Below the pieces are notes generated by a model that was not told the origin of the DNA, made no database searches, and saw nothing but the letters and a program-made list of their open reading frames with translations. Positions 7,101 to 64,000 of a DNA stretch of 64,000 bases are shown here, piece by piece. Within the stretch, counting starts at the first letter, position 1. Every line of letters begins with the position of its first letter. Source of the DNA: Eledone cirrhosa (taxonomy: Eukaryota); assembly GCA_964016885.1 (NCBI GenBank), contig OZ024741.1:400644001-400708000 (forward strand). Direction: 5' to 3'. The translations under genes were made by a program, and so were the position numbers.

Positions 7101-7109
7101 ATGTCCCTG

Positions 7110-9270: not shown

Positions 9271-9360
9271 ATTAATTTACAAGCTTCCTCCCATTGTATA
9301 ATTATTGTTGTTGAATAATCTGACAAAGCTGTATTTTTCCTTTATTTCTTTACAGTAACT

Positions 9361-9436
9361 ATGTATAAGTTGATGCCATCAATTCTCCTCTTCTTCTTCT
9401 TCTTCTTCTGTTTATCACTAACAGTCACCAATGGAG
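9361..9436 (+). CDS. First coding exon of a secreted or membrane protein: signal peptide MYKLMPSILLFFFFFFCLSLTVTNG (exon 9356-9436, phase-1 donor)
   Basis: Strong acceptor TTTTTCCTTTATTTCTTTACAG ending at 9355; ATG at 9361 with A at -3; basic n-region, hydrophobic core, T-N-G fitting the -3/-1 cleavage rule; donor GAG|GTAAGA at 9437. Lies in non-repeat sequence. Confidence 0.72.
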
Positions 9437-9480
9437 GTAAGAACAATGTTTTCTTCCAAGAAAAATTAATAATTTCTTCT

Positions 9481-9709
9481 TTAACCCTTTAACATTTAAA
9501 CCTGCCGTATCCGGCCAGAATTCTCTCACTTCTTTCTGTTCAAACCGGCTGTAACTGGCCACTCATACTTATGTCAAGGTATTGTTCTCAAAATAAATAA
9601 TATCAAAATCTCATAGATTTGATATTATGTGAGATAATTATGAGAGATAAAGTTTTTACTCTAAAAATACAATGGTAGATATATAGAAATGTAAATGTTA
9701 TAGGATTAA
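9481..9709. mobile_element. piggyBac-type MITE 1
   Basis: TTAA-CCCTTTAACATTT ... AAATGTTATAGGA-TTAA (15/17 inverted match including the TTAA sites). Confidence 0.75.
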
Positions 9710-10211
9710 CCCTTTAGTTACCAACCTGGTTAAAACTGACCCTAGAGTCTGCCTTGAGCCCTGAGACTCATCAGGCCAGCACTTATCCTGGTTTCCATGG
9801 CATGAATCAACTGAGAGTACATGACTCCCTCCCTGAACAGAATGCCAGTCCATCACAGGATTAAACCCCCCAGCTATTGCTGGTACACATTTTTAGCTGA
9901 GTATACTGGAGCAATTTGAAATGAAGTGTTTTGCTCAAGAAAACAACACACCTCAGCCTAGGAATCGAACCCTCAACACTATGATTGTAAGTCCAATACC
10001 CATACCACTAGGATACATGCCTGGTTCTTTAGAATAAAACCACACATTTTAATGGTTTCCAAGAAAAATTAAAATCTTTCAACATCATTTTATATAAGAA
10101 CCTTATATTTAAGTAATGAAATAATTAATAATTTTATTAAATCTCTCAAAATTCTTTAATAATTAATTGAAACACTGTTTTTCATTAGAAATGTGGTTAT
10201 GAAAGGGTTAA
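9706..10211. mobile_element. piggyBac-type MITE 2, interrupted by a SINE
   Basis: TTAA-CCCTTTAGTTACCA ... TGGTTATGAAAGGG-TTAA; shares TTAA 9706-9709 with MITE 1. Confidence 0.78.
9744..10022 (-). mobile_element. tRNA-derived SINE, family 1, near full length
   Basis: Minus strand: A-box-like TATCCTAGTGG, B box GGTTCGATTCC, central GATGGACTGGCATTCTGTTCAGGG block. Homologous to 5011-5158. Confidence 0.88.
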
Positions 10212-10285
10212 TATGAATTTAGTTCAATATTGAATCACCAATCAGTTGACTCTCCAGAAGTTAGTTGCTGATTTACTTTATTAAA

Positions 10286-10420
10286 CTGGACTGGAAAGCA
10301 AGTCACTATGAGAGATTGATAGATGTAGAGAATGAATGGAAGGAAGGGAAACTACTCCTAACTTACCCAGAGGAAAGAGCAGCTATTGAAATTGACAGTT
10401 TTAGGGTGCAAGATATGACC
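10286..10420 (+). mobile_element. RTE-clade LINE internal fragment (endonuclease-RT linker) running into the satellite
   Basis: Translation from 10292: WKASHYERLIDVENEWKEGKLLLTYPEERAAIEIDSFRVQDM. Resembles the RTE linker pattern W..HYERLLN.EN.W...L....P.EGPAI.ID...V..AI..MK (recalled, not searched). Confidence 0.7.
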
Positions 10421-13400
10421 AGCTATTGAAGTTGACAGTTTTAGGGTGCAAGATATGACGAGCTATTGAAGTTGACAGTTTTAGGGTGCAAGATATGACC
10501 AGCTATTGAAGTTGACAGTTTTAGAGTAAAGGATATGACCAGCTATTGAAGTTGACAGTTTTAGGGTGCAAGATAACCAGCTATTGAAGTTGACAGTTTT
10601 AGTGTGAAAGATATGATCAGCTATTGAAGTTGACAGTTTTAGGGTGCAAGATATGACGAGCTATTGAAGTTGACAGTTTTAGGGTGCAAGATATGACAAT
10701 CTATTGAAGTTGACAGTTTTAGCGGGCAAGATATGACCAGCTATTGAAGTTGACAGTTTCAGGCTGCAAGATATGACCAGCTATTGAAGTTGACAGTTTT
10801 AGGGTGAAAGATATGACCAGCTATTGAGGTTGACAGGTTTAGGGTGCAAGATATGGCCAGCTATTGAAGTTGACAGTTTTAGGGTGCAAGATATGACCAG
10901 CTATTGAAGTTGACAGTTTTAGCGTGCAAGACATGACCAGCTATTGAAGTTGACAGTTTCAGGGTGCAAGATATGACCAGCTATTAAAGTTGACAGATTT
11001 AGCGTGCAAGATAGGACAGCTATTGAAGATGACAGTTTTAGGGTGAAGATAACCAGCTATTGAAGCTGACAGTTTTAGGGTGCAAGATATGACGAGCTAT
11101 TGAAGTTGACAGTTTTAGGGTGCAAGATATGACCAGCTATTGAAGTTGACAGTTTTAGCGGGCAAGATATGACCAGCTATTGAAGTTGACAGTTTCAGGG
11201 TGCAAGATATGACCAGCTATTGAAGTTGACAGGTTTAAGGTGCAAGATATGGCCGGCTATTGAAGTTGACAGTTTAAGCCTGCAAGATATGACCAGCTAT
11301 TGAAGTTGACAGTTTTAGGGTGCAAGATATGACCAGCTATTGAAATTGACCGTTTTAGTGTGAAAGATATGTCGAGCTATTGAAGTTGACAGTTTTAGGG
11401 TGCAAGATCTGACCAGCTATTGAAGTTGACAGATTTAGTGTGAAAGATATGACCAGCTATTGAAGTGGACAGTTGTAGGGTGCAAGATATGACCAGTTAT
11501 TGAAGTTGACAGTTTTAGCGTGAAAGATATGACAGCTATTGAAGTTGACAGTTTTAGGGTGCAAGATAACCAGCTATTGAAGTTGACAGTTTTAGTGTGA
11601 AAGATATGATCAACTATTGAAGTTGACAGTTTTAGGGTGCAAGATATAAACCGCTATTGAAGTTGACAGTTTCGGGGTGCAAGATATGACCAGCTATTGA
11701 AGTTGACAGTTTTAGCGTGCAAGATATGACCAGCTATTGAAGTTGACAGTTTCAGGCTGCAAGATATGACCAGCTATTGAAGTTGACAGTTTTAGGGTGA
11801 AAGATATGACCAGCTATTGAAGTTGACAGATTTAGGGTGCAAGATATGACGAGCTATTGAAGTTGACAGTTTTAGGGTGCAAGATATGACGAGCTATTGA
11901 AGTTGACAGTTTTAGGGTGCAAGATATGACCAGCTATAGAGCTTGACAGGTTTAGGGTGCAAGATATAAACCGCTATTGAAGTTGACAGTTTCAGGGTGC
12001 AAGATATGACTAGCTATTGAAATTGACACTTTTAGGTGCAAGATATGACCATCTATTGAGGTTGACAGTTTTAGAGTAAAGGATATGACCAGCTATTGAT
12101 GTTGACAGTTTTAGGGTGCAAGGTATGACCAGCTATTGAAGTTAACAGTTTTAGGGTGGAAGATATAACCAGCTATTGAAGTTGACAGTTTTAGAGTAAA
12201 GGATATGACCAGCTATTGAAGTTCACAGTTTTAGAATAAAGGATATGACCAGCTATTGAAGTTGACAGTTTAGGGTGCAAGATATGACTAGCTATTGAAG
12301 TTGACAGTTTTAGGGTGAAAGATATAACCAGCTATTGAAGTTGACATTTTAGTGGGAAAGATATGACGAGCTATTGAAGTTGACAGTTTTAGGGTGCAAG
12401 TTATGACCAGCTATTGAAGTTGACAGTTTTAGTGTGAAAGATATGACCAGCTATTGAAGTGGACAGTTTTAGGGTGCAAGATATGACGAGCTATTGAAGT
12501 TGACAGATTTAGGGTGCAAGATATGACCAGCTATTGAAGTTGACAGTTTTAGGGTGCAAGATAACCAGCTATTGAAGTTGACAGTTTTAGTGTGAAAGAT
12601 ATGACCAGCTATTGAAGTTGACAATTTTAGGGTGCAAGATATAACCAGCTATTGAAGTTGACAATTTTAGGGTGCAAGATATGACTAGCTATTGAAGTTG
12701 ACAATTTTAGGGTGAAAGATATGACCATCTATTGAAGTTGACAGTTTTAGAGTAAAGGATATGACCAGCTATTGAAGTTGACAGTTTTAGGGTGCAAGAT
12801 AACCAGCTATTGAAGTTGACAGTTTTAGTGTGAAAGATATGATCAGCTATTGAAGTTGACAGTTTTAGGGTGCAAGATATGACGAGCTATTGACGTTGAC
12901 AGTTTTAGGGTGCAAGATATGACCAGCTATTGAAGTTGACAGTTTTAGCGTGCAAGACATGACCAGCTATTGAAGTTGACAGTTTCAGGGTGCAAGATAT
13001 GACCAGCTATTGAAGTTGACAGTTTTAGGGTGCAAGATATGACCAGCTATTGAGGTTGACAGGTTTAGGGTGCAAGATATGACCAGCTATTGAAGTTGAC
13101 AGTTTTAGCGTGCAAGACATGACCAGCTATTGAGGTTGACAGTTTCAGGGTGCAAGATATGACCAGCTATTAAAGTTGACAGATTTAGCGTGCAAGATAG
13201 GACAGCTATTGAAGTTGACAGTTTTAGGGTGAAGATAACCAGCTATTGAAGCTGACAGTGTTAGGGTGCAAGATATGACGAGCTATTGAAGTTGACAGTT
13301 TTAGGGTGCCAAATATGACCAGCTATTGAAGTTGACAGTTTTAGCGGGCAAGATATGACCAGTTATTGAAGTTGACAGTTTCAGGGTGCAAGATATGACC

Positions 13401-16400
13401 AGCTATTGAAGTTGACAGGTTTAAGGTGCAAGATATGGCCGGCTATTGAAGTTGACAGTTTAAGCCTGCAAGATATGACCAGCTATTGAAGTTGACAGTT
13501 TTAGGGTGCAAGATCTGACCAGCTATTGAAGTTGACAGATTTAGCGTGCAAGATATGACAGCTATTGAAGTTGACAGTTTTAGGGTGCAAGATAACCAGC
13601 TATTGAATTTGACTGTTTTAGTGTGAAAGATATGATCAGCTATTGAAGTTGACAGATTTAGGGTGCAAGATATGACGAGCTATTGAAGTTGACAGTTTTA
13701 GGGTGCAAGATATGACCAGCTATTGAAGTTGACAGTTTTAGCGTGCAAGATATGACCAGCTATTGAAGTTGACAGTTTCAGGCTGCAAGATATGACCAGC
13801 TATTGAAGTTGACAGTTTCAGGGTGAAAGATATGACCAGCTATTGAAGTTGACAGTTTTAGGGTGCAAGATATAAACCGCTATTGAAGTTGACAGTTTCA
13901 GGGTGCAAGATATGACTAGCTATTGAAATTGACACTTTTAGGTGCAAGATATGACCATCTATTGAAGTTGACAGTTTTAGAGTAAAGGATATGACCAGCT
14001 ATTGATGTTGACGGTTTTAGGGTGCAAGGTATGACCAGCTATTGAAGTTGACAGTTTTAGGGTGGAAGATATAACCAGCTATTGAAGTTGACAGTTTTAG
14101 AGTAAAGGATATGACCAGCTATTGAAGTTCACAGTTTTAGAATAAAGGATATGACCAGCTATTGAAGTTGACAGTTTTAGGGTGCAAGATATGACTAGCT
14201 ATTGAAGTTGACAGTTTTAGGGTGAAAGATATAACCAGCTATTGAAGTTGACGTTTTAGTGGGAAAGATATGACGAGCTATTGAAGTTGACAGTTTTAGG
14301 GTGCAAGATATGACCAGCTATTGAAGTTGACAGTTTTAGTGTGAAAGATATGACCAGCTATTGAAGTGGACAGTTTTAGGGTGCAAGATATGACCAGCTA
14401 TTAAAGTTGACAGTTTTAGCGTGAAATATATGACCAGCTATTGAAGTTGACAGTTTTATGGTGCAAGGTATGACGAGCTATTGACGTTGTCAGTTTTAGG
14501 GTTCAAGATATGACCAGCTATTGAAGTTGACAGTTTTAGAGTAAAGGATATGACCAGCTATCGAAGTTCACAGTTTTAGAATAAAGGATATGACCAGCTA
14601 TTGAAGTTGACAGTTTTAGGGTGCAAGATATGACCAGCTATTGAAGTTGACAATTTTAGGGTGCAAGATATAACCAGCTATTGAAGTTGACAGTTTCAGG
14701 GTGCAAGATATGACTAGCTATTGAAGTTGACAATTTTAGGGTGCAAGATATAAACAGCTATTGAAGTTGACAGTTTCAGGGTGCAAGATATGACCAGTTA
14801 TTGAAGTTGACAGTTTCAGGCTGCAAGATATGACCAGCTATTGAAGTTGACAGTTTTAGGGTGCAAGATATGACCAGCTATTGAGGTTGACAGGTTTAGG
14901 GTGCAAGATATGGCCAGCTATTGAAGTTGACAGTTTTAGGGTGCAAGATATGACCAGCTATTGAAGTTGACAGTTTCAGGGTGCAAGATATGACCAGCTA
15001 TTAAAGTTGAGAGATTTAGCGTGCAAGATAGGACAGCTATTGAAGTTGACGGTTTTAGGGTGAAGATAACCAGCTATTGAAGCTGACAGTTTTAGGGTGC
15101 AAGATATGACGAGCTATTGAAGTTGACAGTTTTAGGGTGCAAGATATGACCAGCTATTGAAGTTGACAATTTTAGCGGGCAAGATATGACCAGCTATTGA
15201 AGTTGACAGTTTCAGGGTGCAAGATATGACCAGCTATTGAAGTTGACAGGTTTAAGGTGCAAGATATGGCCGGCTATTGAAGTTGACAGTTTAAGCCTGC
15301 AAGATATGACCAGCTATTGAAGTTGACAGTTTTAGGGTGCAAGATATGACCAGCTATTGAAGTTGACCGTTTTAGTGTGAAAGATATGTCGAGCTATTGA
15401 AGTTGACAGTTTTAGGGTTCAAGATCTGACCAGCTATTGAAGTTGACAGATTTAGTGTGAAAGATATGACCAGCTATTGAAGTGGACAGTTTTAGGGTGC
15501 AAGATATGACGAGCTATTGAAGTTGACAATGTTAGGGTGCAAGATATGACCAGCTATTGAAGTTGAAATTTTTTGGGTGCAAGATAACCAGCTATTGAAG
15601 TTGACAGTTTTAGTGTGAAAGATATGATCGGCTATTGAAGTTGACAGTTTTAGGGTGCAAGATATGACGAGCTATTGAAGTTGACAGTTTGAGGGGTCAA
15701 GATATGACAATCTATTGAATTTGACAGTTTTAGCGGGCAAGATATGACCAGCTATTGAAGTTGACAGTTTCAGGCTGCAAGATATGACCAGCTATTGAAG
15801 TTGACAGTTTTAGGGTGCAAGATATAATCAGCTATTGAGGTTGACAGGTTTAGGGTGCAAGATATGGCCAGCTATTGAAGTTGACATTTCTAGGGTGCAA
15901 GATATGACCAGCTATTGAAATGGACAGTTTTAGCGTGCAAGATATGACCAGCTATTGAAGTTGACAGTTTTAGGGTGAAAGATATGACCAGCTATTGAAG
16001 TTGAAGTTTTAGGGTGCAAGATATAACCACCTATTGAAGTTGACAGTTTCAGGGTGCAAGATATGACTAGCTATTGAAGTTGACACTTTTAGGTGCAAGA
16101 TATGACCATCTATTGAAGTTGACAGTTTTAGAGTAAAGAATATGACCAGCTATTTAAGTGGACAGTTTTAGGGTGCAAGATATGACGAGCTATTGAAGTT
16201 AACAAATTTAGGGTGAAAGATATGACGAGCTATTGAAGTTGACAGTTTTAGGGTGCAAGATATGACGAGCTATTGAAGTTGACAGTTTTAGGGTGCAAGA
16301 TATGACCAGCTATTGAAGTTGACAGATTTAGCGTGCAAGATAGGACAGCTATTGAAGTTGACAGTTTTAGGGTGAAAGATAACCAGCTATTGAGTTACAG

Positions 16401-19400
16401 TTTTAGGGTGCAAGATATGACGAGCAATTGAAGTTGACGGTTTTAGGGTGCAAGATATGACCAGCTATTGAAGTTGACAGTTTTAGCGTGCAAGATATGA
16501 CCAGCTATTGAAGTTGACAGTTTCAGGGTGCAAGATATAACGAGTTATTGAAGTTGACAGGTTTAAGGTGCAAGATACGGCCGGCTATTGAAGTTGACAG
16601 TTTAAGCCTGCAAGATATGACCAGCTATTGAAGTTGACAGTTTTAGGGTGCAAGATATAACCAGCTATTGAAGTTGACAATTTCAGGTTGCAAGATATGA
16701 CTAGCTATTGAAGTTGACAGTTTTAGGGTGAAAGATATGACCATCTATTGAAATTGACAGTTTTAGAGTAAAGGATATGACCAGCTATTGAAGTTGACAG
16801 TTTTAGTGGGAAAGATATGACGAGCTATTGAAGTTGAGAGTTTTAGGGTGCAAGGTATGAACAGCTATTGAAGTTGAGAGTTTTAGGGTGCAAGATATGA
16901 ACAGCTATTGAAGTTGAGAGTTTTAGGGTGCAAGATATGAACAGCTATTGAAGTGGACAGTTTTAGCGTGCAAGATATGACAGCTATTGAAGTTGACAGT
17001 TTTAGGGTGCAAGATAACCAGCTATTGAAGTTGACAGTTTTAGTGTGAAAGATATAATCAGCTATTGAAGTTGATAGATTTAGGGTGCAAGATATGACGA
17101 GCTATTGAAGTTGACAGTTTTAGCGTGCAAGATATGACCAGCTATTGAAGTTGACAGTTTCAGGGTGCAAGATATGACCAGCTATTAAATTTGACAGATT
17201 TAGCGTGCAAGATAGGAGAGCTATTGAAGTTGACAGTTTTAGGGTGAAGATAAACAGCTATTGAAGCTGACAGTTTTAGTGTGCAAGATATGACGAGCTA
17301 TTGAAGTTGGCAGTTTCAGGGTGCAAGATATGACCAGCTATTGAAGCTGACAGTTTTAGTGTGCAAGATATGACGAGCTATTGAAGTTGGCAGTTTCAGG
17401 GTGCAAGATATGACCAGCTATTGAAGTTGACAGTTTTAGCGGGCAAGATATGACCAGCTATTGAAGTTGACAGTTTTAGGGTGCAAGGTCTGACCAGCTA
17501 TTGAATTTGACAGATCTAGTGTGAAAGATATGACCAGCTATTGAAGTGGACAGTTTTAGGGTGCAAGATATGACGAGCTATTGAAGTTGACAGTTTTAGG
17601 GTGCAAGATATGACCAGCTATTGAAGTTGACAGTTTTTGGGTGCAAGATAACCAGCTATTGAAGTTGACAGTTTTAGTGAGAAAGATATGATCGGCTATT
17701 GAAGTTGACAGTTTTAGCGTGCAAGATATGACTAGCTATTGAAGTTGACAGTTTCATGGTGCAAGATATGACCAGCTATTGAATTTGACAGTTTTAGCAG
17801 GCAAGATATGACCAGCTATTGAAGTTGACAGTTTCAGGTTGCAAGATATGACCAGCTATTGAAGTTGACAGTTTTAGGGTGCAAGATATGACTAGCTATT
17901 GAAGTTGACAGTTTTAGGATGAAAGATATGACCAGCTATTGAAGTTGACAGTTTTAGGGTGCAAGATATAACCACCTATTGAAGTTGACAGTTTCAGGGT
18001 GCAAGATATGACTAGCTATTGAAGTTGACACTTTTAGGTGCAAGATATGACCATCTATTGAAGTTGACAGTTTCAGAGTAAAGGATATGACCAGCTATTT
18101 AAGTGGACAGTTTTAGGGTGCAAGATATGACGAGCCATTGAAGTTAACAAATTTAGGGTGAAAGATATGACCAGCTATTGAAGTTGACAGCTTTAGGGTG
18201 CAAGATATGACCAGCTATTGAAGTTGACAGTTTTAGTGTGAAAGATATGTCGAGCTACTGAAGTTGACAGTTTTAGGGTGCAAGATATGACGAGCTATTG
18301 AAGTTGACAGTTTTAGGGTGCAAGATATGACCAGCTATTGAAGTTGACAGATTTAGCGTGCAAGATAGGACAGCTTTTGAAGTTGACAGTTTTAGGGTGA
18401 AAGATAACGAGCTATTGAAGTTACAGTTTTAGGGTACAAGATATGACGAGCTATTGAAGTTGACGGGTTTAAGGTGCAAGATATGGCCGGCTATTGAAGT
18501 TGACAGTTTAAGCCTGCAAGATATGACCAGCTATTGAAGTTGACAGTTTTAGGGTGCAAGATATAACCAGCTATTGAAGTTGACAATTTCAGGGTGCAAG
18601 ATATGACTAGCTATTGAAGTTGACAGTTTTAGGGTGAAAGATATGACCATCTATTGAAGTTGACAGTTTTAGAGTAAAGGATATGACCAGCTATTGAAGT
18701 TGACAGTTTTAGTGGGAAAGATATGACGAGCTATTGAAGTTGAGAGTTTTAGGGTGCAAGATATGAACAGCTATTGAAGTGGACAGTTTTAGGGTGCAAG
18801 ATATGACGAGCTATTGAAGTTGACAATTTTAGGGTGCAAGATATGACCAGTTATTGAAGTTTACAGTTTTAGCGTGCAAGATATGACCAGCCATTGAAGT
18901 TGACAGTTTCAGGCTGCAAGATATGACCAGCTATTGAAGTTGACAGTTTTAGGGTGAAAGATATGACCAGCTATTGAAGTTGACAGTTTTAGGGTGCAAG
19001 ATATAAACAGCTATTGAAGTTGACAATTTCAGGGTGCAAGATATGACTAGCTATTGAAATTGACACTTTTAGGTGCAAGATATGACCATCTATTGAAGTT
19101 GACAGTTTTAGAGTAAGGGATATGACCAGCTATAGATGTTGACAGTTTTAGGGTGCAAGGTATGACCAGCTATTGAAGTTGACAGTTTTAGGGTGGAAGA
19201 TATAACCAGCTATTGAAGTTGACAGGTTTAGGGTGCAAGATATGAACAGCAATTGAAGTTGACAGTTTTAGTCTGAATGATATGACCAGCTATTGAAGTT
19301 GACAGTTTTAGGGTGGAAGATATTACTAGCTATTGAAGTTGACAGTTTTAGGGTGCAAGATATGACCAGCTATTGAAGTTGACAGTTTTAGAGTAAAGGA

Positions 19401-22400
19401 TATGACCAGCTATTGAAGTTCACAGTTTTAGAATAAAGGATATGACCAGCTATTGATGTTGACAATTTTAGGGTGCAAGATATAACCAGCTATTGAAGTT
19501 GACAGTTTCAGGGTGCAAGATATGACTAGCTATTGAAGTTGACAGTTTTAGAGGTGAAAGATATGACCATCTATTGAAGTTGACAGTTTTAGAGTAAAGG
19601 ATATGACCAGCTATTGAAGTTGACATTTTAGTGGGAAAGATATAACGAGCTATTGAAGTTGACAGTTTTAGGGTGCAAGATATGACCAGCTATTTAAGTT
19701 GACAGTTTTAGTGTGAAAGATATGACCAGCTATTGAGGTGGACAGTTTTAGGGTGCAAGATATGACGAGCTATTGAAGTTGACAGTTTTAGGGTGCAAGA
19801 TATGACAATCTATTGAAGTTGACAGTTTTAGCGGGCAATATATGACTAGCTATTGAATTTGACAGTTTCAGGCTTCAAGATATGACCAGCTATTGAAGTT
19901 GACAGTTTTAGGGTGCAAGATATGACCAGCTATTAAGGTTGACAGGTTTAGGGTGCAAGATATGACCAGCTATTGAAGTTGACAGTTTAGGGTGCAAGAT
20001 ATAACCAGCTATTGAAGTTGACAGGTTTAGGGTGCAAGATAAGACCAGCTATTGAAGTGGACAGTTTTAGGGTGCAAGATATGACGAGCTATTGAAGTTG
20101 ACAGTTTTAGGGTGCAAGATAACCCGCTATTGAAGTTGACAGTTTTAGTGTGAAAGATATGATCAACTATTGAAGTTGACAGATTTAGGGTGAAAGATAT
20201 GACCAACTATTGAAGTTGACAGTTTTAGAGTAAAGGATATGACCAGCTATTGAAGTTCACAGTTTTAGAATAAAGGATATGACCAGCTATTGAAGTTGAC
20301 AGTTTTAGGGTGCAAGATATGACTAGCTATTGAAGTTGACAGTTTTAGGGTGAAGGATATGACCAGCTATTGAAGTTGACAGTATTAGGGTGCAAGACAT
20401 AACCAGCTATTGAAGTTGACAGTTTCAGGGTGCAAGATATGACTAGCTATTGAAGTTGAGAGTTTTAGGGTGAAAGATATGACCATCTATTGAAGTTGAC
20501 AGTTTTAGTGTAAAGGATATGACCAGCTATTGAAGTTGACAGTTTTAGTGGGAAAGATATCACGAGCTATTGAAGTTGACAGTTTTAGGGTGCAAGATAT
20601 GAACAGCTATTGAAGTGGACAGTTTTAGGGTGCAAGATATGACGAGCTATTGAAGTTAACAGTTTTAGGGTGAAAGATATGACCAGCTATTGAAGTTGAC
20701 AGTTTTAGAGTAAAGGATATGACCAGCTATTGAAGTTCACAGTTTTAGAATAAAGGATATGACCAGCTATTGAAGTTGACAAATTTAGGGTGCAAGATAT
20801 AACCAGCTATTGAAGTTGACAGTTTCAGGGTGCAAGATATGACTAGCTATTGAAGTTGACAGTTTTAGGGTGAAAGATATGACCATCTATTGAAGTTGAC
20901 AGTTTTAGAGTAAAGGATATGACCAGTTATTGAAGTTGACATTTTAGTGGGAAAGATATGACGAGCTATTGAAGTTGACAGTTTTAGGGTGCAAGATATG
21001 ACCAGCTATTGAAGTTGACAGTATTAGGGTGCAAGATATAACCAGCTATTGAAGTTGACAGTTTCAGGGTGCAAGATATGACTAGCTATTGAAGTTGAGA
21101 GTTTTAGGGTGAAAGATATGACCATCTATTGAAGTTGACAGTTTTAGTGTAAAGGATATGACCAGCTATTGAAGTTGACAGTTTTAGTGGGAAAGATATC
21201 ACGAGCTATTGAAGTTGACAGTTTTAGGGTGCAAGATATGAACAGCTATTGAAGTGGACAGTTTTAGGGTGCAAGATATGACGAGCTATTGAAGTTAACA
21301 GTTTTAGGGTGAAAGATATGACCAGCTATTGAAGTTGACAGTTTTAGGGTGCAAGATATGACCAGCTATTGAAGTTGACAGTTTTAGTGTGAAAGATATG
21401 TCGAGCTATTGAAGTTGACAGTTTTGGGGTGCAAGATAAGACCAGCTATTGAAGTTGACAGTTTTAGTGTGAAAGATATGACCAGCTATTGAAGTGGACA
21501 GTTTTAGGGTGCAAGATATGACGAGCTATTGAAGTTGACAGATTTAGGGTGCAAGATATGACCAGCTATTGAAGTTGACAGTTTTGGGGTGCAAGATAAC
21601 CAGCTATTGAAGTTGACAGTTTTAGTGTGAAATATATGATCAGCTATTGAATTTGACAGTTTTAGGGTGCAAGATATAACGAGCTATTGAAGTTGGCAGT
21701 TTTAGAGTAAAGGATATGACCAGTTATTGAAGTTGACATTTTAGTGGGAAAGATATGACTAGGTATTGAAGTTGACAGTTTTAGGGTGAAGGATATGACC
21801 AGCTATTGAAGTTGACAGTATTAGGGTGCAAGATATAACCAGCTATTGAAGTTGACAGTTTCAGGGTGCAAGATATGACTAGCTATTGAAGTTGAGAGTT
21901 TTAGGGTGAAAGATATGACCATCTATTGAAGTTGACAGTTTTAGTGTAAAGGATATGACCAGCTATTGAAGTTGACAGTTTTAGTGGGAAAGATATCACG
22001 AGCTATTGAAGTTGACAGTTTTAGGGTGCAAGATATGACCAGCTATTGAAGTTGACAGTATTAGGGTGCAAGATATAACCAGCTATTGAAGTTGACAGTT
22101 TCAGGGTGCAAGATATGACTAGCTATTGAAGTTGAGAGTTTTAGGGTGAAAGATATGACCATCTATTGAAGTTGACAGTTTTAGTGTAAAGGATATGACC
22201 AGCTATTGAAGTTGACAGTTTTAGTGGGAAAGATATCACGAGCTATTGAAGTTGACAGTTTTAGGGTGCAAGATATGAACAGCTATTGAAGTGGACAGTT
22301 TTAGGGTGCAAGATATGACGAGCTATTGAAGTTAACAGTTTTAGGGTGAAAGATATGACCAGCTATTGAAGTTGACAGTTTTAGGGTGCAAGATATGACC

Positions 22401-22799
22401 ATCTATTGAAGTTGACAGTTTTAGTGTGAAAGATATGTCGAGCTATTGAAGTTGACAGTTTTAGGGTGCAAGATATGACCAGCTATTGAAGTTGACAGTT
22501 TTAGTGTGAAAGATATGACCAGCTATTGAAGTGGACAGTTTTAGGGTGCAAGATATGACGAGCTATTGAAGTTGACAGATTTAGGGTGCAAGATATGACC
22601 AGCTATTGAAGTTGACAGTTTTGGGGTGCAAGATAACCAGCTATTGAAGTTGACAGTTTTAGTGTGAAATATATGATCAGCTATTGAAGTTGACAGTTTT
22701 AGCGTGCAAGATATGATGAGCTATTGAAGTTGGCAGTTTTAGGGTGCAAGATATGATAATCCATTGAAGTTGACAGTTTTAGCGGGCAAGATATGACCA

Positions 22800-46400: not shown

Positions 46401-46460
46401 TTTAGTGGGAAAGATATGACGAGCTATTGAAGTTGACAGTTTTAGGGTGCAAGATATGAC
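37500..46460 (+). repeat. Higher-order tandem duplication, period 4,511/4,471 bp (113/112 monomers)
   Basis: ACCACGTATGG 37717/42228 (+4511); GAAGTCGAC 40162/44633 and CATAATATGA 41500/45971 (+4471, one monomer lost near 43.3 kb). Confidence 0.87.
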
Positions 46461-53600: not shown

Positions 53601-56600
53601 GGATATGACCAGCTATTGAAGTTCACAGTTTTAGAATAAAGGATATGACCAGCTATTGAAGTTGACAAATTTAGGGTGCAAGATATAACCAGCTATTGAA
53701 GTTGACAGTTTCAGGGTGCAAGATATGACTAGCTATTGAAGTTGACAGTTTTAGGGTGCAAGATATGACCAGCTATTGAAGTTGACAGTTTTAGTGTGAA
53801 AGATATGACCAGCTATTGAAGTGGACAGTTTTAGGGTGCAAGATATGACGAGCTATTGAAGTTGACAGTTTTAGGGTGCAAGATATGACAATCTATTGAA
53901 GTTGACAGTTTTAGCGGGCAAGATATGACCAGCTATTGAATTTGACAGTTTCAGGCTTCAAGATATGACCATCTATTGAAGTTGACAGTTTTAGTGTAAA
54001 GGATATGACCAGCTATTGAAGTTGACAGTTTTAGTGGGAAAGATATGACGAGCTATTGAAGTTGACAGTTTTAGGGTGCAAGATATGAACAGCTATTGAA
54101 GTGGACAGTTTTAGGGTGCAAGATATGACGAGGTATTGAAGTTAACAGTTTTAGGGTGAATGATATGACCAGCTATTGAAGTTGTCAGTTTTAGGGTGCA
54201 AGATATGAGCAACTATTGGAGTGGACAGTTTTAGGGTGCAAGATATGACCAGTTATTGAAGTTTACAGTTTTAGCGTGCAAGATATGACAGCTATTGAAG
54301 TTGACAGTTTTAGGGTGCAAGATAACCAGCTATTGAAGTTGACCGTTTTAGTGTGCAAGATATGACCAGCTATTGAAGTTGACAGTTTCAGGCTGCAAGA
54401 TATGACCAGCTATTGAAGTTGACAGTTTTGGGGTGAAAGATATGACCAGCTATTGAAGTTGACAGTTTTAGAGTAAAGGATATGACCAGCTATTGAAGTT
54501 CACAGTTTTAGAATAAAGGATATGACCAGCTATTGAAGTTGACAGTTTTAGGGTGCAAGATATGACTAGCTATTGAAGTTGACAGTTTCAGGGTGCAAGA
54601 TATGACCAGCTATTGAAGTTGACAGTTTTAGAGTAAAGGATATGACCAGCTATTGAAGTTCACAGTTTTAGAATAAAGGATATGACCAGCTATTGAAGTT
54701 GACAAATTTAGTGTGCAAGATATAACCAGCTATTGAAGTTGACAGTTTCAGGGTGCAAGATATGACTAGCTATTGAAGTTGACAGTTTTAGGGTGAAAGA
54801 TATGACCATCTATTGAAGTTGACAGTTTTAGAGTAAGGGATATAACCAGCTATTGAAGTTGACAGGTTTAGGGTGCAAGATATGACCAGCTATTGAAGTT
54901 GACAGTTTTAGTGTGAAAGATATGTCGAGCTATTGAAGTTGGCAGTTTTAGGGTACAAGATATGACCAGCTATTGAAGTTGACAGTTTTAGTGTGAAAGA
55001 TATGACCAGCTATTGAAGTGGACAGTTTTAGGGTGCAACATATGACGAGCTATTGAAGTTGACAGATTTAGGGTGCAAGATATGACCTGCTATTGAAGTT
55101 GACAGTTTTAGGGTGCAAGATAACCAGCTATTGAAGTTGACAGTTTTAGCGGGCAAGATATGACCAGCTATTGAATTTGACAGTTTCAGGCTTCAAGATA
55201 TGACCAACTATTGAAGTTGACAGTTTTAGAGTAAAGGATATGACCAGCTATTGAAGTTCACAGTTTTAGAATAAAGGATATGACCAGCTATTGAAGTTGA
55301 CAATTTTAGGGTGCAAGATATAACCAGCTATTGAAGTTGACAGTTTCAGGGTGCAGGATATGACTAGCTATTGAAGTTGACAGTTTTAGGGTGAAAGATA
55401 TGACCATCTATTGAAGTTGATAGTTTTAGTGTAAAGGATATGACCAGCTATTGAAGTTGACAGTTTTAGTGGGAAAGATATGACGAGCTATTGAAGTTGA
55501 CAGTTTTAGGGTGCAAGATATGAACAGCTATTGAAGTGGACAGTTTTAGGGTGCAAGATATGACGAGCTATTGAAGTTAACAGTTTTAGGGTGAAAGATA
55601 TGAACAGCTATTGAAGTTGACAGTTTTAGGGTGCAAGATATGACCCGCTATTGAAGTTGACAGTTTCAGTGTGAAAGATATGTCGAGCTATTGAAGTTGA
55701 CAGTTTTAGGGTGCAAGATATGAACAGCTATTGAGGTTGACAGGTTTAGGGTGCAAGATATGGCCAGCTATTGAAGTTGACAGTTTTAGGGTGCAAGATA
55801 TGACCAGCTATTGAAGTTGACAGTTTCAGGGTGCAAGATATGACCAGCTATTGAAGTTGACAGATTTAGTGTGAAATATATGACCAGCTATTGAAGTTGA
55901 CAGTTTTGGCGTGCAAGATATGACCAGCTATTGAAGTTGACAGTTTTAGTGTGAAGGATATGACCAGCTATTGAAGTTGACAGTTTTAGGGTGGAAGATA
56001 TGACCAGCTATTGAAATTGACAGTTTTAGTGTGAAAGATATGACCAGCTATTGAAATTGACAGTTTTAGCCTGCAAGATATGACCAGCTATTGAAGTTGA
56101 CAGTTTTAGGCTGCAAGATATGACCAGCTAATGAAGTTGACAGTTTTAGAGTAAAGGATATGACCAGCTATTGAAGTTGACAGTTTTAGAATAAAGGATA
56201 TGACCAGCTATTGAAGTTGACAGTTTTAGGGTGCAAGATATGACTAGCTATTGAAATTGACACTTTTAGGTGCAAGATATGACCATCTATTGAAGTTGAC
56301 AGTTTTAGAGTAAAGGATATGACCAGCTATTGATGTTGACAGTTTTAGGGTGCAAGGTATGACCAGCTATTGAAGTTGAAAGTATTAGGGTGGAAGATAT
56401 AACCAGCTATTGAAGTTGACAGGTTTAGTGTGCAAGATATGACCAGCTATTGAAGTTGACAGTTTTAGTGTGAAAGATATGACCAACTATTGAAGTTGAC
56501 AGTTTTAGGGTGGAAGATATGACCAGCTATTGAAGTTGACAGATTTAGTGTGAAAGATATGACCACCTATTGAAGTTGACAGTTTTAGGGTGCAAGATAT

Positions 56601-58239
56601 GACGAGCTATTGATGTTGTCAGTTTTAGGGTGCAAGATATGACCAGCTATTGAAGTTGACAGTTTTAGAGTAAAGGATATGACCAGCTATTGAAGTTCAC
56701 AGTTTTAGAATAAAGGATATGACCAGCTATTGAACTTGACAGTTTTAGGGTGCAAGATATGACTAGCTATTGAAGTTGACAGTTTTAGGGTGAAAGATAT
56801 GACCAGCTATTGAAGTTGACAGTATTAGGGTGCAAGATATAACCAGCTATTGGAGTTGACAGTTTCAGGGTGCAAGATATGACTAGCTATTGAAGTTGAG
56901 AGTTTTAGGGTGCAAGATATGACGAGCTATTGAAGTTAACAGTTTTAGGGTGAAAGATATGACCAGCTATTGAAGTTGACAGTTTTAGGGTGCAAGATAT
57001 GACCAGCTATTGAAGTTGACAGTTTTAGTGTGAAAGATATGTCGAGCTATTGAAGTTGACAGTTTTAGGTTGCAAGATATGACCAGCTATTGAAGTTGAC
57101 AGTTTTAGTGTGAAAGATATGACCAGCTATTGAAGTGGACAGTTTTAGGGTGCAAGATATGACGAGCTATTGAAGTTGACAGATTTAGGGTGCAATATAT
57201 GACCAGCTATTGAAGTTAACAGTTTTTGGGTGCAAGATAACCAGCTATTGAAGTTGACAGTTTTAGTGTGAAATATATGATCAGCTATTGAAGTTGACAG
57301 TTTTAGGGTGCAAGATATGACGAGCTATTGAAGTTGACAGTTTTAGGGTGCAAGATATGACAATCTATTGAGGTTGACAGTTTTAGGGTGCAAGATATGA
57401 CCAGCTATTGAATTTGACAGTTTCAGGCTTCAAGATATGACCAGCTATTGAAGTTGACAGTTTTAGGGTGCAAGATATGACCAGCTATTGATGTTGACAG
57501 GTTTAGGGTGCAAGATATGACCAGCTATTGAAGTTGACAGTTTTAGGGTGCAAGATATGACCAGCTATTGAAGTTGACAGTTTTAGCGTGCAAGATATGA
57601 CCAGCTATTGAAGTTGACAGTTTCAGGGTGCAAGATATGACCAGCTATTGAAGTTGTCAATTTTAGTGTGAAATATATGACCAGCTATTGAAGTTGACAG
57701 TTTTAGCGTGCAAGATATGACCAGCTATTGAAGTTGACAGTTTCAGGGTGCAAGATATGACCAGGTATTGAAGTTAACAGTTTAGGGTGCAAGATATAAC
57801 CAGCTATTGAAGTTGACAGGTTTAGGGTGCAAGATATGACCAGCTATTGAAGTTGACAGTTTTAGTGTGAAAGATATGACCAGCTATTGAAGTTGACAGT
57901 TTTAGGGTGGAAGATATGACCAGCTATTGAAGTTGACAGTTTTAGTGTGAAAGATATGACCAGCTATTGAAGTTGACAGTTTTAGGGTGCAAGATATGAC
58001 GAGCTATTGAAGTTGTCAGTTTTAGGGTGCAAGATATGACCAGCTATTGAAGTTGCCAGTTTTAGAGTAAAGGATATGACCAGCTATTGAAGTGGACAGT
58101 TTTAGGGTGCAAGATATGACTAGCTATTGAAGTTGACAGTTTCAGGGTGCAAGATATGACCAGCTATTGAAGTTGACTGTTTTAGGGTAAAGGATATGAC
58201 CAGCTATTGAAGTTCACAGTTTTAGAATAAAGGATATGA

Positions 58240-61200
58240 CCAGCTATTGAAGTTGACATTTTAGTGGGAAAGATATGACGAGCTATTGAAGTTGACAGTT
58301 TTAGGGTGCAAGATATGACCAGCTATTGAAGTTGACAGTTTTAGTGTGAAAGATATGACCAGCTATTGAAGTGGACAGTTTTAGGGTGCAAGATATGACG
58401 AGCTATTGAATTTGACAGTTTTAGCGGGCAAGATATGACCAGCTATTGAATTTGACAGTTTCAGGCTTCAAGATATGACCAGCTATTGAAGTTGACAGTT
58501 TAGGGTGCAAGATATAACCAGCTATTGAAGTTGACAGGTTTAGGGTGAAAGATATGAGCAGCTATTGAAGTTGACACTTTTAGTGTGAAAGATATGACCA
58601 GCTATTGAAGTTGACAGTTTTAGGGTGGAAGATATGACCAGCTATTGAAGTTGAGAGTTTTAGTGTGCAAGATATGAACAGCTATTGAAGTGGACAGTTT
58701 TAGGGTGCAAGATATGACGAGCTATTGAAGTTAACAGTTTTAGGGTGAAAGATATGACCAGCTATTGAAGTTGACAGTTTTAGGGTGCAAGGTATGACCA
58801 GCTATTGAAGTGGACAGTTTTAGGGTGCAAGATATGACGAGCTATTGAAGTTGACAGTTTTAGGGTGCAAGATATGACCAGTGATTGAAGTTTACAGTTT
58901 TAGCGTGCAAGATATGACAGCTATTGAAGTTGACAGTTTTAGGGTGCAAGATAACCAGCTATTGAAGTTGACAGTTTTAGTGTGCAAGATATGACCAGCT
59001 ATTGAAGTTGACAGTTTCAGGCTGCAAGATATGACCAGCTATTGAAGTTGACAGTTTTAGGGTGAAAGATATGACCAGCTATTGAAGTTGACAGTTTTAG
59101 AGTAAAGGATATGACCAGCTATTGATGTTGACAGATTTAGGGTGCAAGGTATGGCCAGCTATTGAAGTTGACAGTTTTAGGGTGGAAGATATAACCAGCT
59201 ATTGAAGTTGACAGGTTTAGGGTGCAAGATATGACCAGCTATTGAAGTTGACGGTTTTAGTGTGAAAGATATGACCAGCTATTGAAGTTGACAGTTTTAG
59301 GGTGGAAGATATGACCAGCTATTGAAGTTGACAGTTTTAGTGTGAAAGATATGACCAGCTATTGAAGTTGACAGTTTTAGGGTGCAAGATATGACGAGCT
59401 ATTGAAGTTGTCAGTTTTAGGGTGCAAGATATGACCAGCTATTGAAGTTGACAGTTTTAGAGTAAAGGATATGACCAGCTATTGAAGTTCACAGTTTTAG
59501 AATAAAGGATATGACCAGCTATTGAAGTTGACAGTTTTAGGGTGCAAGATATGACTAGCTATTGAAGTTGACAGTTTTAGGGTGAAAGATATGACCAGCT
59601 ATTGAAGTTGACAGTATTAGGGTGCAAGATATAACCAGCTAGTGAAGTTGACAGTTTCAGGGTGCAAGATATGACTAGCTATTGAAGTTGACAGTTTTAG
59701 GGTGAAAGATATGACCATCTATTGAAGTTGACAGTTTTAGTGTAAAGGATATGACCAGCTATTGAAGTTGACAGGTTTAGGGTGCAAGATATGACCAGCT
59801 ATTGAAGTTGACGGTTTTAGTGTGAAAGATATGACCAGCTATTGAAGTTGACAGTTTTAGGGTGGAAGATATGACCAGCTATTGAAGTTGACAGTTTTAG
59901 TGTGAAAGATATGACCAGCTATTGAAGTTGACAGTTTTAGGGTGCAAGATATGACGAGCTATTGAAGTTGTCAGTTTTAGGGTGCAAGATATGACCAGCT
60001 ATTAAAGTTGACAGTTTTAGAGTAAAGGATATGACCAGCTATTGAAGTTCACAGTTTTAGAATAAAGGATGTGACCAGCTATTGAAGTTGACAGATTTAG
60101 GGTGCAAGATATGACTAGCTATTGAAGTTTACAGTTTTAGGCTGCAAGATATGACCAGCTATTGAAGTTGACAGTATTAGGGTGCAAGATATAACCAGCT
60201 AGTGAAGTTGACAGTTTCAGGGTGCAAGATATGACTAGCTATTGAAGTTGACAGTTTTAGGGTGAAAGATATGACCATCTATTGAAGTTGACAGTTTTAG
60301 TGTAAAGGATATGACCAGCTATTGAAGTTGACAATTTTAGTTTTAAAGTTATGACGAGCTATTGAAGTTGACAGTTTTAGGGTGCAAGATATGACGAGCT
60401 ATTGAAGTTAACAGTTTTAGGGTGAAAGATATGACCAGCTATTGAAGTTGACAGTTTTAGGGTGCAAGATATGACCAGCTATTGACGTTGACAGTTTCAG
60501 TGTGAAAGATATGTCGATCTATTGAAGTTGACAGTTTTAAGGTGCAAGATATGACCAGCTATTGAAGTTGACAGTTTTAGTGTGAAAGATATGACCAGCT
60601 ATTGAAGTGTACAGTTTTAGGGTGCAACATATGACGAGCTATTGAAGTTGACAGATTTAGGGTGCAAGATATGACCAGCTATTGAAGTTGACAAATTTAG
60701 GGTGCAAGATATAACCAGCTATTGAAGTTGACAGTTTCAGGGTGCAAGATATGACTAGCTATTGAAGTTGACAGTTTTAGGGTGAAAGATATGACCATCT
60801 ATTGAAGTTGACAGTTTTAGAGTAAAGGATATGACCAGCTATTAAAGTTGACATTTTAGTGGGAAAGATATGACGAGCTATTGAAGTTGACAGTTTTAGG
60901 GTGCAAGATATGACCAGCTATTGAAGTTGACAGTTTTAGTGTGAAAGATATGACCAGCTATTGAAGTGGACAGTTTTAGGGTGCAAGATATGACGAGCTA
61001 TTGAAATTGACAGTTTTAGCGGGCAAGATATGACCAGCTATTGAATTTGACAATTTCAGGCTTCAAGATATGACCAGCTATTGAAGTTGACAGTTTAGGG
61101 TGCAAGATATAACCAGCTATTGAAGTTGACAGGTTTAGGGTGAAAGATATGAGCAGCTATTGAAGTTGACACTTTTAGTGGTGTGAAAGATATGACCAGC

Positions 61201-63230
61201 TATTGAAGTTGACAGTTTTAGGGTGGAAGATATGACCAGCTATTGAAGTTGAGAGTTTTAGTGTGCAAGATATGAACAGCTATTGAAGTGGACAGTTTTA
61301 GGGTGCAAGATATGACGAGCTATTGAAGTTAACAGTTTTAGGGTGAAAGATATGACCAGCTATTGAAGTTGACAGTTTTAGGGTGCAAGGTATGACCAGC
61401 TATTGAAGTGGACAGTTTTAGGGTGCAAGATATGACGAGCTATTGAAGTTGACAGTTTTAGGGTGCAAGATATGACCAGTGATTGAAGTTTACAGTTTTA
61501 GCGTGCAAGATCTGACAGCTATTGAAGTTGACAGTTTTAGGGTGCAAGATAACCAGCTATTGAAGTTGACAGTTTTAGTGTGCAAGATATGACCAGCTAT
61601 TGAAGTTGACAGTTTCAGGCTGCAAGATATGACCAGCTATTGAAGTTGACAGTTTTAGGGTGAAAGATATGACCATCTATTGAAGTTGACAGTTTTAGTG
61701 TAAAGGATATGACCAGCTATTGAAGTTGACAATTTTAGGGTGCAAGGTATGGCCAGCTATTGAAGTTGACAGTTTTAGGGTGGAAGATATAACCAGCTAT
61801 TGAAGTTGACAGGTTTAGGGTGCAAGATATGACCAGCTATTGAAATTGACAGTTTTAGGGTGCAAGATATGACGAGCTATTGAAGTTGTCAGTTTTAGGG
61901 TGCAAGATATGACCAGCTATTGAAGTTGACAGTTTTAGAGTAAAGGATATGACCAGCTATTGAAGTTCACAGTTTTAGAATAAAGGATATGACCAGCTAT
62001 TGAAGTTGACAGTTTTAGGGTGCAAGATATGACTAGCTATTGAAGTTGACAGTTTTAGGGTGAAAGATATGACCAGCTATTGAAGTTGACAGTATTAGGG
62101 TGCAAGATATAACCAGCTAGTGAAGTTGACAGTTTCAGGGTGCAAGATATGACTAGCTATTGAAGTTGACAGTTTTAGAGTAAAGGATATGACCAGCTAT
62201 TGAAGTTCACAGTTTTAGAATAAAGGATATGACCAGCTATTGAAGTTGACAGTTTTAGGGTGCAAGATATGACCATCTATTGAAGTTGACAGTTTTAGTG
62301 TAAAGGAGATGACCAGCTATTGAAGTTGACAGGTTTAGGGTGCAAGATATGACCAGCTATTGAAGTTGACGGTTTTAGTGTGAAAGATATGACCAGCTAT
62401 TGAAGTTGACAGTTTTAGGGTGGAAGATATGACCAGCTATTGAAGTTGACAGTTTTAGTGTGAAAGATATGACCAGCTATTGAAGTTGACAGTTTTAGGG
62501 TGCAAGATATGACGAGCTATTGAAGTTGTCAGTTTTAGGGTGCAAGATATGACCAGCTATTGAAGTTGACAGTTTTAGAGTAAAGGATATGACCAGCTAT
62601 TGAAGTTCACAGTTTTAGAATAAAGGATATGACCAGCTATTGAAGTTGACAGAGTTAGGGTGCAAGATATGACTAGCTATTGAAGTTTACAGTTTTAGGG
62701 TGAAAGATATGACCAGCTATTGAGGTTGACAGTATTAGGGTGCAAGATATAACCAGCTAGTGAAGTTGACAGTTTCAGGGTGCAAGATATGACTAGCTAT
62801 TGAAGTTGACAGTTTTAGGGTGAAAGATATGACCATCTATTGAAGTTGACAGTTTTAGTGTAAAGGATATGACCAGCTATTGAAGTTGACAATTTTAGTG
62901 GGAAAGTTATGACGAGCTATTGAAGTTGACAGTTTTAGGGTGCAAGATATGACGAGCTATTGAAGTTAACAGTTTTAGGGTGAAAGATATGACCAGCTAT
63001 TGAAGTTGACAGTTTTAGGGTGCAAGATATGACCAGCTATTGACGTTGATAGTTTCAGTGTGAAAGATATGTCGATCTATTGAAGTTGACAGTTTTAAGG
63101 TGCAAGATATGACCAGCTATTGAAGTTGACAGTTTTAGTGTGAAAGATATGACCAGCTATTGAAGTGTACAGTTTTAGGGTGCAACATATGACGAGCTAT
63201 TGAAGTTGACAGATTTAGGGTGCAAGATAT
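58240..63230 (+). repeat. More diverged higher-order duplication, period ~2.6 kb (~65 monomers)
   Basis: GATATGAGCAGCT 58551/61146; CCAGTGATTGAAGTTTAC 58878/61476; paired AGCTAGTGAAG variants near 59.6/60.2 kb and 62.1/62.8 kb. Confidence 0.78.
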
Positions 63231-64000
63231 GACCAGCTATTGAAGTTGACAGTTTTAGGGTGCAAGATAACCAGCTATTGAAGTTGACAGTTTTAGTGTG
63301 AAGATATGATCAGCTATTGAAGTTGACAGTTTTAGGGTGCAAGATATGACGAGCTATTGAATTTGACAGTTTTAGGGTGCAAGATATGACAATCTATTGA
63401 AGTTGACAGTTTTAGCGGGCAAGATATGACCAGCTATTGAATTTGACTGTTTCAGGCTTCAAGATATGACCAACTATTGAAGTTGACAGTTTTAGAGTAA
63501 AGGATATGACCAGCTATTGAAGTTCAAAGTTTTAGAATAAAGGATATGACCAGCTATTGAAGTTGACAATTTTAGGGTGCAAGATATAACCAGCTATTGA
63601 AGTTGACAGTTTCAGGGTGCAAGATATGACTAGCTATTGAAGTTGACAGTTTTAGGGTGAAAGATAGGACCATCTATTGAAGTTGACAGTTTTAGAGTAA
63701 AGGATATGACCAGCTATTGAAGTTGACAGTTTTAGTGGGAAAGATATGACGAGCTATTGAAGTTGACAGTTTTAGGGTGCAAGATATGAACAGCTATTGA
63801 AGTGGACAGTTTTAGGGTGCAAGATATGACCAGCTATTGAAGTTGACAGTTTCAGTGTGAAAGATATGTCGAGCTATTGAAGTTGACAGTTTTAGGGTGC
63901 AAGATATGACCAGCTATTGAGGTTGACAGGTTTAGAGTGCAAGATATGGCCAGCTATTGAAGTTGACAGTTTTAGGGTGCAAGATATGACCAGCTATGGA

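Follow-up and report, generated by a model that had tools for sequence, protein, structure and literature searches.

A predicted signal-peptide exon and a 40-bp satellite of likely RTE-LINE origin at one locus of the octopus Eledone cirrhosa

We asked whether a short exon-like sequence in Eledone cirrhosa could begin a gene whose next intron contains a neighboring satellite array, and where that array came from. The window, meaning the whole stretch of DNA analyzed, comprises 64,000 nucleotides of contig OZ024741.1 (assembly GCA_964016885.1, positions 400,644,001 to 400,708,000 of the forward strand). An earlier note had described an 81-nt exon carrying a strong acceptor, an ATG, a signal peptide with an F6 core, and a phase-1 GTAAGA donor, followed by a satellite of >53 kb that would lie inside the downstream intron, in analogy with Drosophila Y-loop genes. 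The exon and its splice sites are as follows.

9331 to 9355, plus strand: polypyrimidine tract and AG acceptor, 0.89 pyrimidines, without an upstream AG
9356 to 9436, plus strand: predicted 81-nt exon with a 25-residue predicted signal peptide and a phase 1 end
9437 to 9442, plus strand: 5′ splice donor GTAAGA (GAG/GTAAGA)

The acceptor AG occupies 9354 to 9355, and the 19 nt upstream are free of AG. Among 520 YAG sites on both strands of positions 1 to 10379 it shares the top pyrimidine fraction with one site in a CT microsatellite (3036, minus strand). The same scope contains 31 GTRAG sites, and of these the donor at 9437 alone has an AG before it. One frame is open through the exon, while the other two carry stops; its translation is MYKLMPSILLFFFFFFCLSLTVTNG plus one base, giving phase 1, and the ATG at 9361 has an A at −3. 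The peptide has a lysine at position 3 in its n-region and a hydrophobic core with a peak hydropathy of 3.2 (11-residue window), and its F6 stretch is a (TTC)n microsatellite. Small residues at −3 and −1 were judged by the von Heijne rule, with T at −3 and G at −1 assigned by eye, and the predicted cleavage site coincides exactly with the phase-1 donor. The combination of canonical strong splice sites, a single open frame, a basic n-region, a hydrophobic h-region, and small residues before the cleavage site (read by eye) suggests that 9356 to 9436 likely forms an exon encoding the signal peptide of a secreted or membrane protein. A signal peptide on its own exon, with a phase-1 intron next, is a known molluscan layout, as the available part of the literature on the cone snail contryphan gene describes. 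Because the exon length is a multiple of three and the frame is open 5′ of the ATG, the sequence could alternatively be an internal phase 1-1 exon.

A protein search with the signal peptide gave 2 candidates, none at E ≤10 among proteins of 77 to 2000 aa; the peptide matched nothing in the Atlas and no family in Pfam, and two pieces of it had no match in a literature text search. A leafhopper repetitive protein at E 4e-4 was rejected as spurious, having no matched stretch. Exact DNA scans of metagenome contigs returned 0 matches for the exon and 0 for the 40-bp monomer, and an Rfam search of 1 to 10500 gave 24 matches, all under the gathering score and falling on AT/AC microsatellites or a palindrome at 4155 to 4285. 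Contigs of run X1 (a sequencing run with 24% of 21 words present) cover interspersed repeats in 9200 to 10379 and have no depth on 9320 to 9439, which says nothing on expression either way.

The exon lies among mobile-element sequences, which continue up to the array.

9062 to 9290: interspersed high-copy repeat (9082 to 9270) within a perfect 20-nt direct repeat, in the putative upstream intron
9481 to 9709: MITE-like element with TTAA-bounded inverted ends, matched by many X1 contigs at 88 to 95% identity
9705 to 10212: second TTAA-bounded MITE-like element, with a repeat nested at ~9760 to 10010, marked by X1 contig depth
10289 to 10414, plus strand: RTE-type LINE ORF2 remnant, from the segment between endonuclease and RT, running in frame into the first monomer

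Judged by its sequence, the region from 1 to 10379 is mostly transposon debris. The X1 contigs pile up on 9200 to 9279; we take the repeat at 9082 to 9270 to be a SINE, and its flanking direct repeat is likely a target-site duplication. The first MITE-like element is presumably of piggyBac type and the repeat nested in the second presumably a SINE, with X1 depth at 9840 to 9960 and 10040 to 10240. Farther upstream lies an RTE piece at 8146 to 8670; an Octopus bimaculoides entry is among its most identical relatives, at 71% across 43% of the query. Of the 943 bp that precede the array, about 829 (about 88%) derive from transposons, and this interval contains no good acceptor. A minus-strand exon starting from the donor-like site at 10366 was rejected as antisense LINE sequence lacking a partner acceptor.

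The sequence supports the earlier statement that no further exon is evident before the array: none of the 57 AGs at 9457 to 10380 exceeds a pyrimidine fraction of 0.68, and the longest continuation in phase 1, of 43 aa, reads the RTE remnant. Within the array, 6,441 AGs likewise reach at most 0.68, with continuations no longer than 40 aa, and an exon there was rejected on these weak tracts and short frames. Given no convincing acceptor before or in the array, the intron of an intact gene would therefore span at least 54.6 kb and enclose the array, a minimum that is bounded by the window, since the far array end lies beyond it. This length exceeds the O. vulgaris median (2,467 bp) about 22-fold, and tandem repeat makes up 98% of the sequence seen after the donor. 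Thus, of the proposal that the satellite sits inside the downstream intron, the absence of a convincing exon before or in the array stands, and the intronic placement is conditional on the gene being intact. The ratchet-point motif YAG/GTRAG occurs 0 times in 9437 to 64000, where 12 weak YAG/GTR sites all fall in variant monomers, and recursive-splicing points of the form (y)nncag/gtaagt are absent from this part of the putative intron.

The array itself runs uninterrupted from 10380 to 63997, reaching the window end as previously noted, with a period of 40 and 1,344 copies in three layers.

10380 to 21839, plus strand: older heterogeneous left layer, 99 array-wide singleton monomers among 288 units
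21840 to 52490, plus strand: young homogeneous core with multi-monomer duplications, 26 singletons among 768 units
52491 to 64000, plus strand: heterogeneous right layer, left-like, 74 singletons among 288 units, where the array exits the window

Every unit aligns to the consensus without insertion, at a mean of 6.1% from it, and none is reversed; the whole is a long head-to-tail array in one orientation, homogenized by block duplication. Exact duplicates of ≥400 bp account for 0 to 10% of the left layer and 54 to 97% per bin of the core; the longest exact copies measure 3,126 bp, and those of ≥1 kb make up 35% of the array. Fourteen monomer types are common to the left and right layers and absent from the core at 29.5 to 52.5 kb, against a mean of 7.5 and a maximum of 16 in a shuffle control. 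This layering, with old flanks around a young duplicated core, gives a hint that the array may end not far past 64 kb. A coding role was rejected, as the 40-bp unit cannot be divided into whole codons and the longest stop-free stretches are 41 codons on the plus strand and 78 on the minus strand. Donor-like GTRAG sites are sparse in the array (0.11 per kb versus 1.45 in the flank), with no GGTRAG donor among them, and AATAAA is no denser there (1.01 versus 0.96 per kb), with 54 hexamers on the sense strand.

The likely origin of the satellite in an RTE-LINE remnant is new here, being absent from the earlier note. The remnant at 10289 to 10414 matches a profile of 16 RTE proteins at E 2e-4 (16.9 bits), compared with ≤4.3 bits in 20 shuffles; these non-octopus proteins are 16 of 32 relatives of another RTE piece, chosen for a length covering the segment. 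A direct search with the remnant gave 5 candidates, none scoring. For the monomer part alone, 7 of 20,000 stop-free shuffles scored better, with offset 0 the best register among 25 offsets; the match rests on 13 residues and was reached by 88 of 20,000 amino-acid shuffles. The monomer is thus homologous to, and in register with, RTE ORF2, and elsewhere in 1 to 10340 it is absent (best 20 of 30 nt). Since the monomer continues the remnant in frame, a local origin of the array, from a decayed RTE-LINE fragment, is likely.

We therefore lean toward a secreted-protein gene with an intron enlarged by a tandem array that derives from a retrotransposon. A 40-bp LINE piece would have been duplicated via slippage or unequal exchange, after which multi-monomer blocks would have been amplified from the middle outward. 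RNA polymerase II would need about half an hour to read through the array, and splicing from 9436 to an exon past 64,000 would proceed through ordinary exon definition, aided by the strong donor and by an array without strong decoy sites. Most likely the array is cargo that the gene tolerates, perhaps at a small expression cost, and the intron most likely an ordinary large one enlarged by repeat growth, without sign of a special timing role. Several observations count against this reading: the intron size, the TTC-microsatellite core, the post hoc chance criteria, the short monomer match to RTE proteins from outside octopuses, the failure of protein searches with the peptide to find a homologue, the absence of a convincing downstream exon within the window, and the 54 sense-strand AATAAA hexamers and few donor-like sites, which could cause early 3′ ends.

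A T-rich stretch with a TTC microsatellite might imitate a signal peptide by chance. Strong acceptor-donor pairs by themselves arise often, in 237 of 500 shuffles, and adding an ATG and a hydrophobic open frame leaves 10 of 500; in 4,977 Markov simulations, trained without the exon and scored by criteria chosen after it was seen, loose criteria were reached in 125 sets, medium in 5, and strict in 0. The loose pattern thus arises in about 2 to 2.5% of shuffled or simulated 10-kb regions, near our rough prior for a real signal-peptide exon per 10 kb, which used 8.36 genes per Mb and a secreted share of 10 to 15%. However, the rarity of the medium and strict patterns and the cleavage site placed exactly at the donor set the exon signals far above chance, so that at the level of sequence the earlier description of the exon is confirmed, and we consider a look-alike rather improbable. 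The exon may instead be real but orphaned or truncated, as a pseudogene, a duplicated fragment, or the start of transcripts that end in transposons or satellite and give a short product. The surrounding transposon debris, AATAAA at 9592, at 10033, and 54 times in the array, and the lack of an upstream exon among the findings fit this idea, whereas the intact splice sites, ATG context, and frame argue against long decay, and read-through past the donor (43 aa, stop at 9492) or nearby acceptors yield only transposon-derived tails; we regard it as unlikely, yet deserving some weight.

Exact duplicates as long as those in the core could also betray a misjoin or repeated reads, making the exon-array link an assembly artefact or the array length wrong. 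At the left junction, however, the RTE remnant passes seamlessly and in frame into the array, which places the array start at this locus, and the many unique monomers in the flanks and the orderly layers make such an artefact very unlikely. Finally, satellite length in an intact gene might have been selected as a device for delaying or dimming expression, in the way proposed for Drosophila Y-loop genes. The geometry permits it, and in humans the number of copies in large tandem repeats can influence expression nearby (10.1101/2020.12.16.423078, in the portion available). At 45 min per 100 kb (PMC2773006, accessible section), however, array transit would take ~25 min rather than ~90 h, the array looks young and locus-born, ratchet motifs are missing after the donor, and the Y-loop paper, in the part at hand, calls the function of intron gigantism obscure (PMC6508621); we give this device scant credence. 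Hardly more probable is a live octopus secreted-protein gene with a single-locus, RTE-born satellite that is still expanding and fully transcribed, and whose length, varying between individuals, would set protein level or delay. If that were true, the locus would show intron gigantism at a young, autosomal-type stage, its birth junction still intact.

Should the gene prove intact, it would offer a clean case of the start of a giant repeat-filled intron, with parent retrotransposon, first monomer, and growth layers all at one locus, and a handy natural test of intronic array length against expression. It also warns that short signal-peptide exons severed by long arrays get missed or split in cephalopod annotations. 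The surprise is modest, because large introns, LINE-derived satellites, and satellites near genes are each already known.

In the accessible literature on octopus satellites, tandem repeats, and introns, this array is not described. The Y-loop introns of Drosophila, as far as the available text of PMC6508621 goes, consist of simple repeats extending over megabases, and their transcription takes about 90 h; in the kl-3 and kl-5 genes a small exon likewise precedes an intron composed almost entirely of tandem repeats. Those are Y-linked germline genes with 5-bp repeats and dedicated RNA-binding proteins, whereas here 53.6 kb is seen of a complex 40-bp unit, unlike short simple units such as AATAT or AAGAC, with a predicted secreted product; the analogy drawn earlier is accordingly weak, with tens of kilobases, as far as the window reaches, set against megabases and a LINE-derived unit against simple repeats. 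Introns of >50 kb are common in animals, numbering 209 in sea urchin, 199 in bee, 100 in beetle, 45 in fly, 853 in chicken, and 756 in zebrafish in the section of PMC2773006 available, and the present intron would belong to this size class; those are described as carrying interspersed repeats or ratchet points, while this one would hold a single homogeneous array and no consensus ratchet point. The Cast1-9 satellites of Tribolium castaneum similarly form long arrays, up to ~112 kb, in gene-rich regions, but they are dispersed multi-locus families, and the word "intron" is absent from the text available (10.1101/2023.04.24.538079). Closest in origin are the satellites tabulated in PMC9659126, PROsat and Pvc 20 from LINE-1 ORF2 and chicken HinfI from CR1, which likewise consist of tandem monomers from non-LTR retrotransposons, with the monomer drawn from the ORF2 region; the present array differs from them in its RTE-type parent, its 40-bp monomer, its cephalopod host, and the in-frame birth junction preserved beside it.

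The predicted 81-nt signal-peptide exon (9356 to 9436, plus strand) lies at the coordinates given in the earlier note, whose strong acceptor, ATG, signal peptide and phase-1 GTAAGA donor were borne out as sequence features. Its acceptor (0.89 pyrimidines, no upstream AG) ties for best among the 520 YAG sites that 1 to 10379 has on its two strands; in that region the donor, GAG/GTAAGA at 9437, is the sole AG-preceded site among 31 GTRAG. The second-best acceptor, at 7929, falls within pieces of one repeat present in both orientations (6960 to 7100 and 7210 to 8060), whose ends, by eye, are similar near 7230 to 7380 and 7880 to 8030 and suggest a larger inverted-repeat element. The exon has a single open frame, with an ATG at 9361 (A at -3) translating to MYKLMPSILLFFFFFFCLSLTVTNG plus one leftover base. 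The predicted signal peptide has a basic n-region and a hydropathy maximum of 3.2, and the small residues that signal peptides carry at -3 and -1 fall at the exon end. Protein searches gave no homologue of this peptide, and no transcript of the gene was found. Given the exon's 81-nt length and a frame open upstream of the ATG, it could alternatively lie inside a gene, as a phase 1-1 exon. A likely recent repeat insertion between perfect 20-nt direct repeats (9062 to 9290) lies 65 bp upstream of the acceptor, and an identical 16-mer occurs just past the donor (9454 to 9469) and within the second MITE-like element (10057 to 10072).

As the earlier note held, no exon is evident ahead of the array: none of the 57 AGs checked at 9457 to 10380 is a good acceptor (all ≤0.68 pyrimidines), and the most that any of them adds in phase 1 is 43 aa, translated from the LINE remnant. 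Read-through past the donor meets a stop at 9492. Only about 114 of the 943 bp between exon and array remain outside the transposon-derived stretches. Both TTAA-bounded elements drew a pile-up of contigs from an unrelated sequencing run and are therefore high-copy.

Transposon-derived features upstream of the array
About 1400-2900, minus: broken retroelement bearing RT (weak RVT_1 match, E 0.006)
3141-3500 and 5263-5517, plus: short fragments resembling the C-terminal endonuclease end of the 1400-2900 retroelement
5584-5991, plus: RTE-type LINE 3′ fragment, ending at an (ATC/GAT)n tail
8030-8960, minus: longer RTE-type LINE 3′ fragment, ending at an (ATC/GAT)n tail
9481-9709: element with TTAA-bounded inverted ends
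9705-10212: element with TTAA-bounded inverted ends and a nested repeat inside
10283-10379: LINE sequence

The window is repeat-rich animal DNA, with microsatellites in 1 to 9300. We take the 1400-2900 retroelement and its two fragments to be Penelope-like. The longer RTE fragment includes a weak PHD-like insert, present in related RTE proteins. Octopus bimaculoides entries are among the relatives of the RTE piece, and one of them has the top identity of the matches listed (71% over 43% of the query). Together with the appearance of the SINEs and MITEs, this points to an octopus as the likely origin of the DNA. An AT-rich segment (4140 to 4290) holds an almost perfect palindrome, about 130 bp long, that matched several miRNA models, all under gathering score, and is probably a MITE or foldback.

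The array, a 40-bp tandem repeat from 10380 to the window end, comprises 1,344 head-to-tail units (1,224 exactly 40 bp) that differ from the consensus by a mean of 6.1%; none aligns poorly, and there are no insertions or reversed monomers. Its longest stop-free stretches, 41 codons on the plus strand and 78 on the minus, agree with the absence of an ORF reported earlier. No exon-like acceptor was found among its 6,441 AGs (best, 0.68 pyrimidines and 40 aa), and its sense strand has no GGTRAG donor and 0.11 GTRAG per kb, versus 1.45 in the flank. Together with the absence of any YAG/GTRAG ratchet point in 9437 to 64000, these results indicate no plausible exon and few decoys in the array. AATAAA is as dense on its sense strand (1.01 per kb) as in the flank (0.96), and its 54 hexamers could produce early 3′ ends.

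An origin overlooked in the earlier note is that of the monomer, which continues in frame an RTE-LINE ORF2 remnant (10289 to 10419). The frame at 10265 to 10426 matches the segment between endonuclease and RT, and many RTE proteins show weak alignments to this position in this frame. Run against 3,837 frame pieces, a profile of 16 of 32 relatives, picked for length enough to include the segment, found the remnant with an E of 2e-4 and 16.9 bits, versus ≤4.3 in 20 shuffles. The match reaches 35 bp past the array start, and the first monomer carries a rare variant, seen in 15 of 1,344 units, that codes Ile at the junction. Taken alone, the 13 matched residues coded by the monomer score 6.9 at the flank-fixed offset, the best of 25; as high a score came from 7 of 20,000 nucleotide shuffles kept free of stops and from 88 of 20,000 shuffles of the residues. 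For the last four residues the best fit lies three columns later, which suggests that a little sequence was deleted relative to the parent LINE. From the in-frame match and the absence of the monomer elsewhere in 1 to 10340 (best, 20/30 nt), we infer that the array was born at this locus from this LINE copy.

The array is concentrically layered, with heterogeneous flanks around a young core of multi-monomer duplications (periods include 43, 70, 78, 89 and 112 monomers). Singleton monomers make up 99 of 288 units in the left 11.5 kb, 26 of 768 in the middle 30.6 kb and 74 of 288 in the right 11.5 kb. Exact duplicates of ≥400 bp (longest, 3,126 bp) cover 0 to 10% of the first three bins and 54 to 97% of the eight middle ones, and are absent (0%) from the final three. 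Fourteen monomer types are common to both flanks and absent from the 29.5- to 52.5-kb core, where shuffling gave a mean of 7.5 and a maximum of 16; left flank and core have only 7 in common (shuffle mean 22). Since this null takes no account of local duplication, the sharing lends modest support to expansion from the middle; by symmetry, the far end may lie close to 64 kb. Part of the duplication in the core may come from assembly errors.

On balance, we lean toward an intact gene that spans the array as passive cargo, and the proposed geometry, with the satellite inside the intron, is probably right. The exon might instead be a chance look-alike, which we consider improbable: a strong acceptor-donor pair by itself says little, as 237 of 500 shuffled sequences contained one, and the loose full pattern turned up in 10 of 500 such sequences and in 125 of 4,977 Markov simulations; against this reading, the medium pattern arose in 5 of 4,977 simulations and the strict pattern in none. 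Because these criteria were chosen once the exon had been seen, and its F6 run is a TTC microsatellite, we go only so far as to call the exon quite probably genuine. An orphaned or truncated exon is unlikely. We give little credence to an assembly artefact. That array length, which the earlier note thought could tune expression, is a selected tuning device seems very improbable.

In a cone snail, a gene has been described whose signal sequence occupies a separate exon with a phase-1 intron after it (10.1101/2022.08.05.502922). The minimum intron here, 54,564 bp, is about 22 times the Octopus vulgaris median of 2,467 bp (PMC10700109); introns of this size class number in the hundreds in several animals (PMC2773006), and at the rate given there, 45 min for every 100 kb, its transcription would take about 25 min. 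The analogy drawn earlier with Drosophila Y fertility genes is weak: Y-loop introns hold megabases of 5-bp repeats rather than at least 54,564 bp with 40-bp units, take about 90 h to transcribe, aided by Blanks and Heph, and have a function termed obscure (PMC6508621). Searches of the openly accessible literature for satellites and introns of octopus showed no description of this array. LINE ORF2-derived satellites are known (PROsat, Pvc 20 and HinfI, in a table of PMC9659126); the word RTE is absent from the available text of that review. In gene-rich regions of Tribolium, satellite arrays reach about 112 kb (10.1101/2023.04.24.538079). The locus belongs to a familiar class, that of arrays derived from transposons, here within an intron that is likely large, and is unusual in the clarity of its birth junction.
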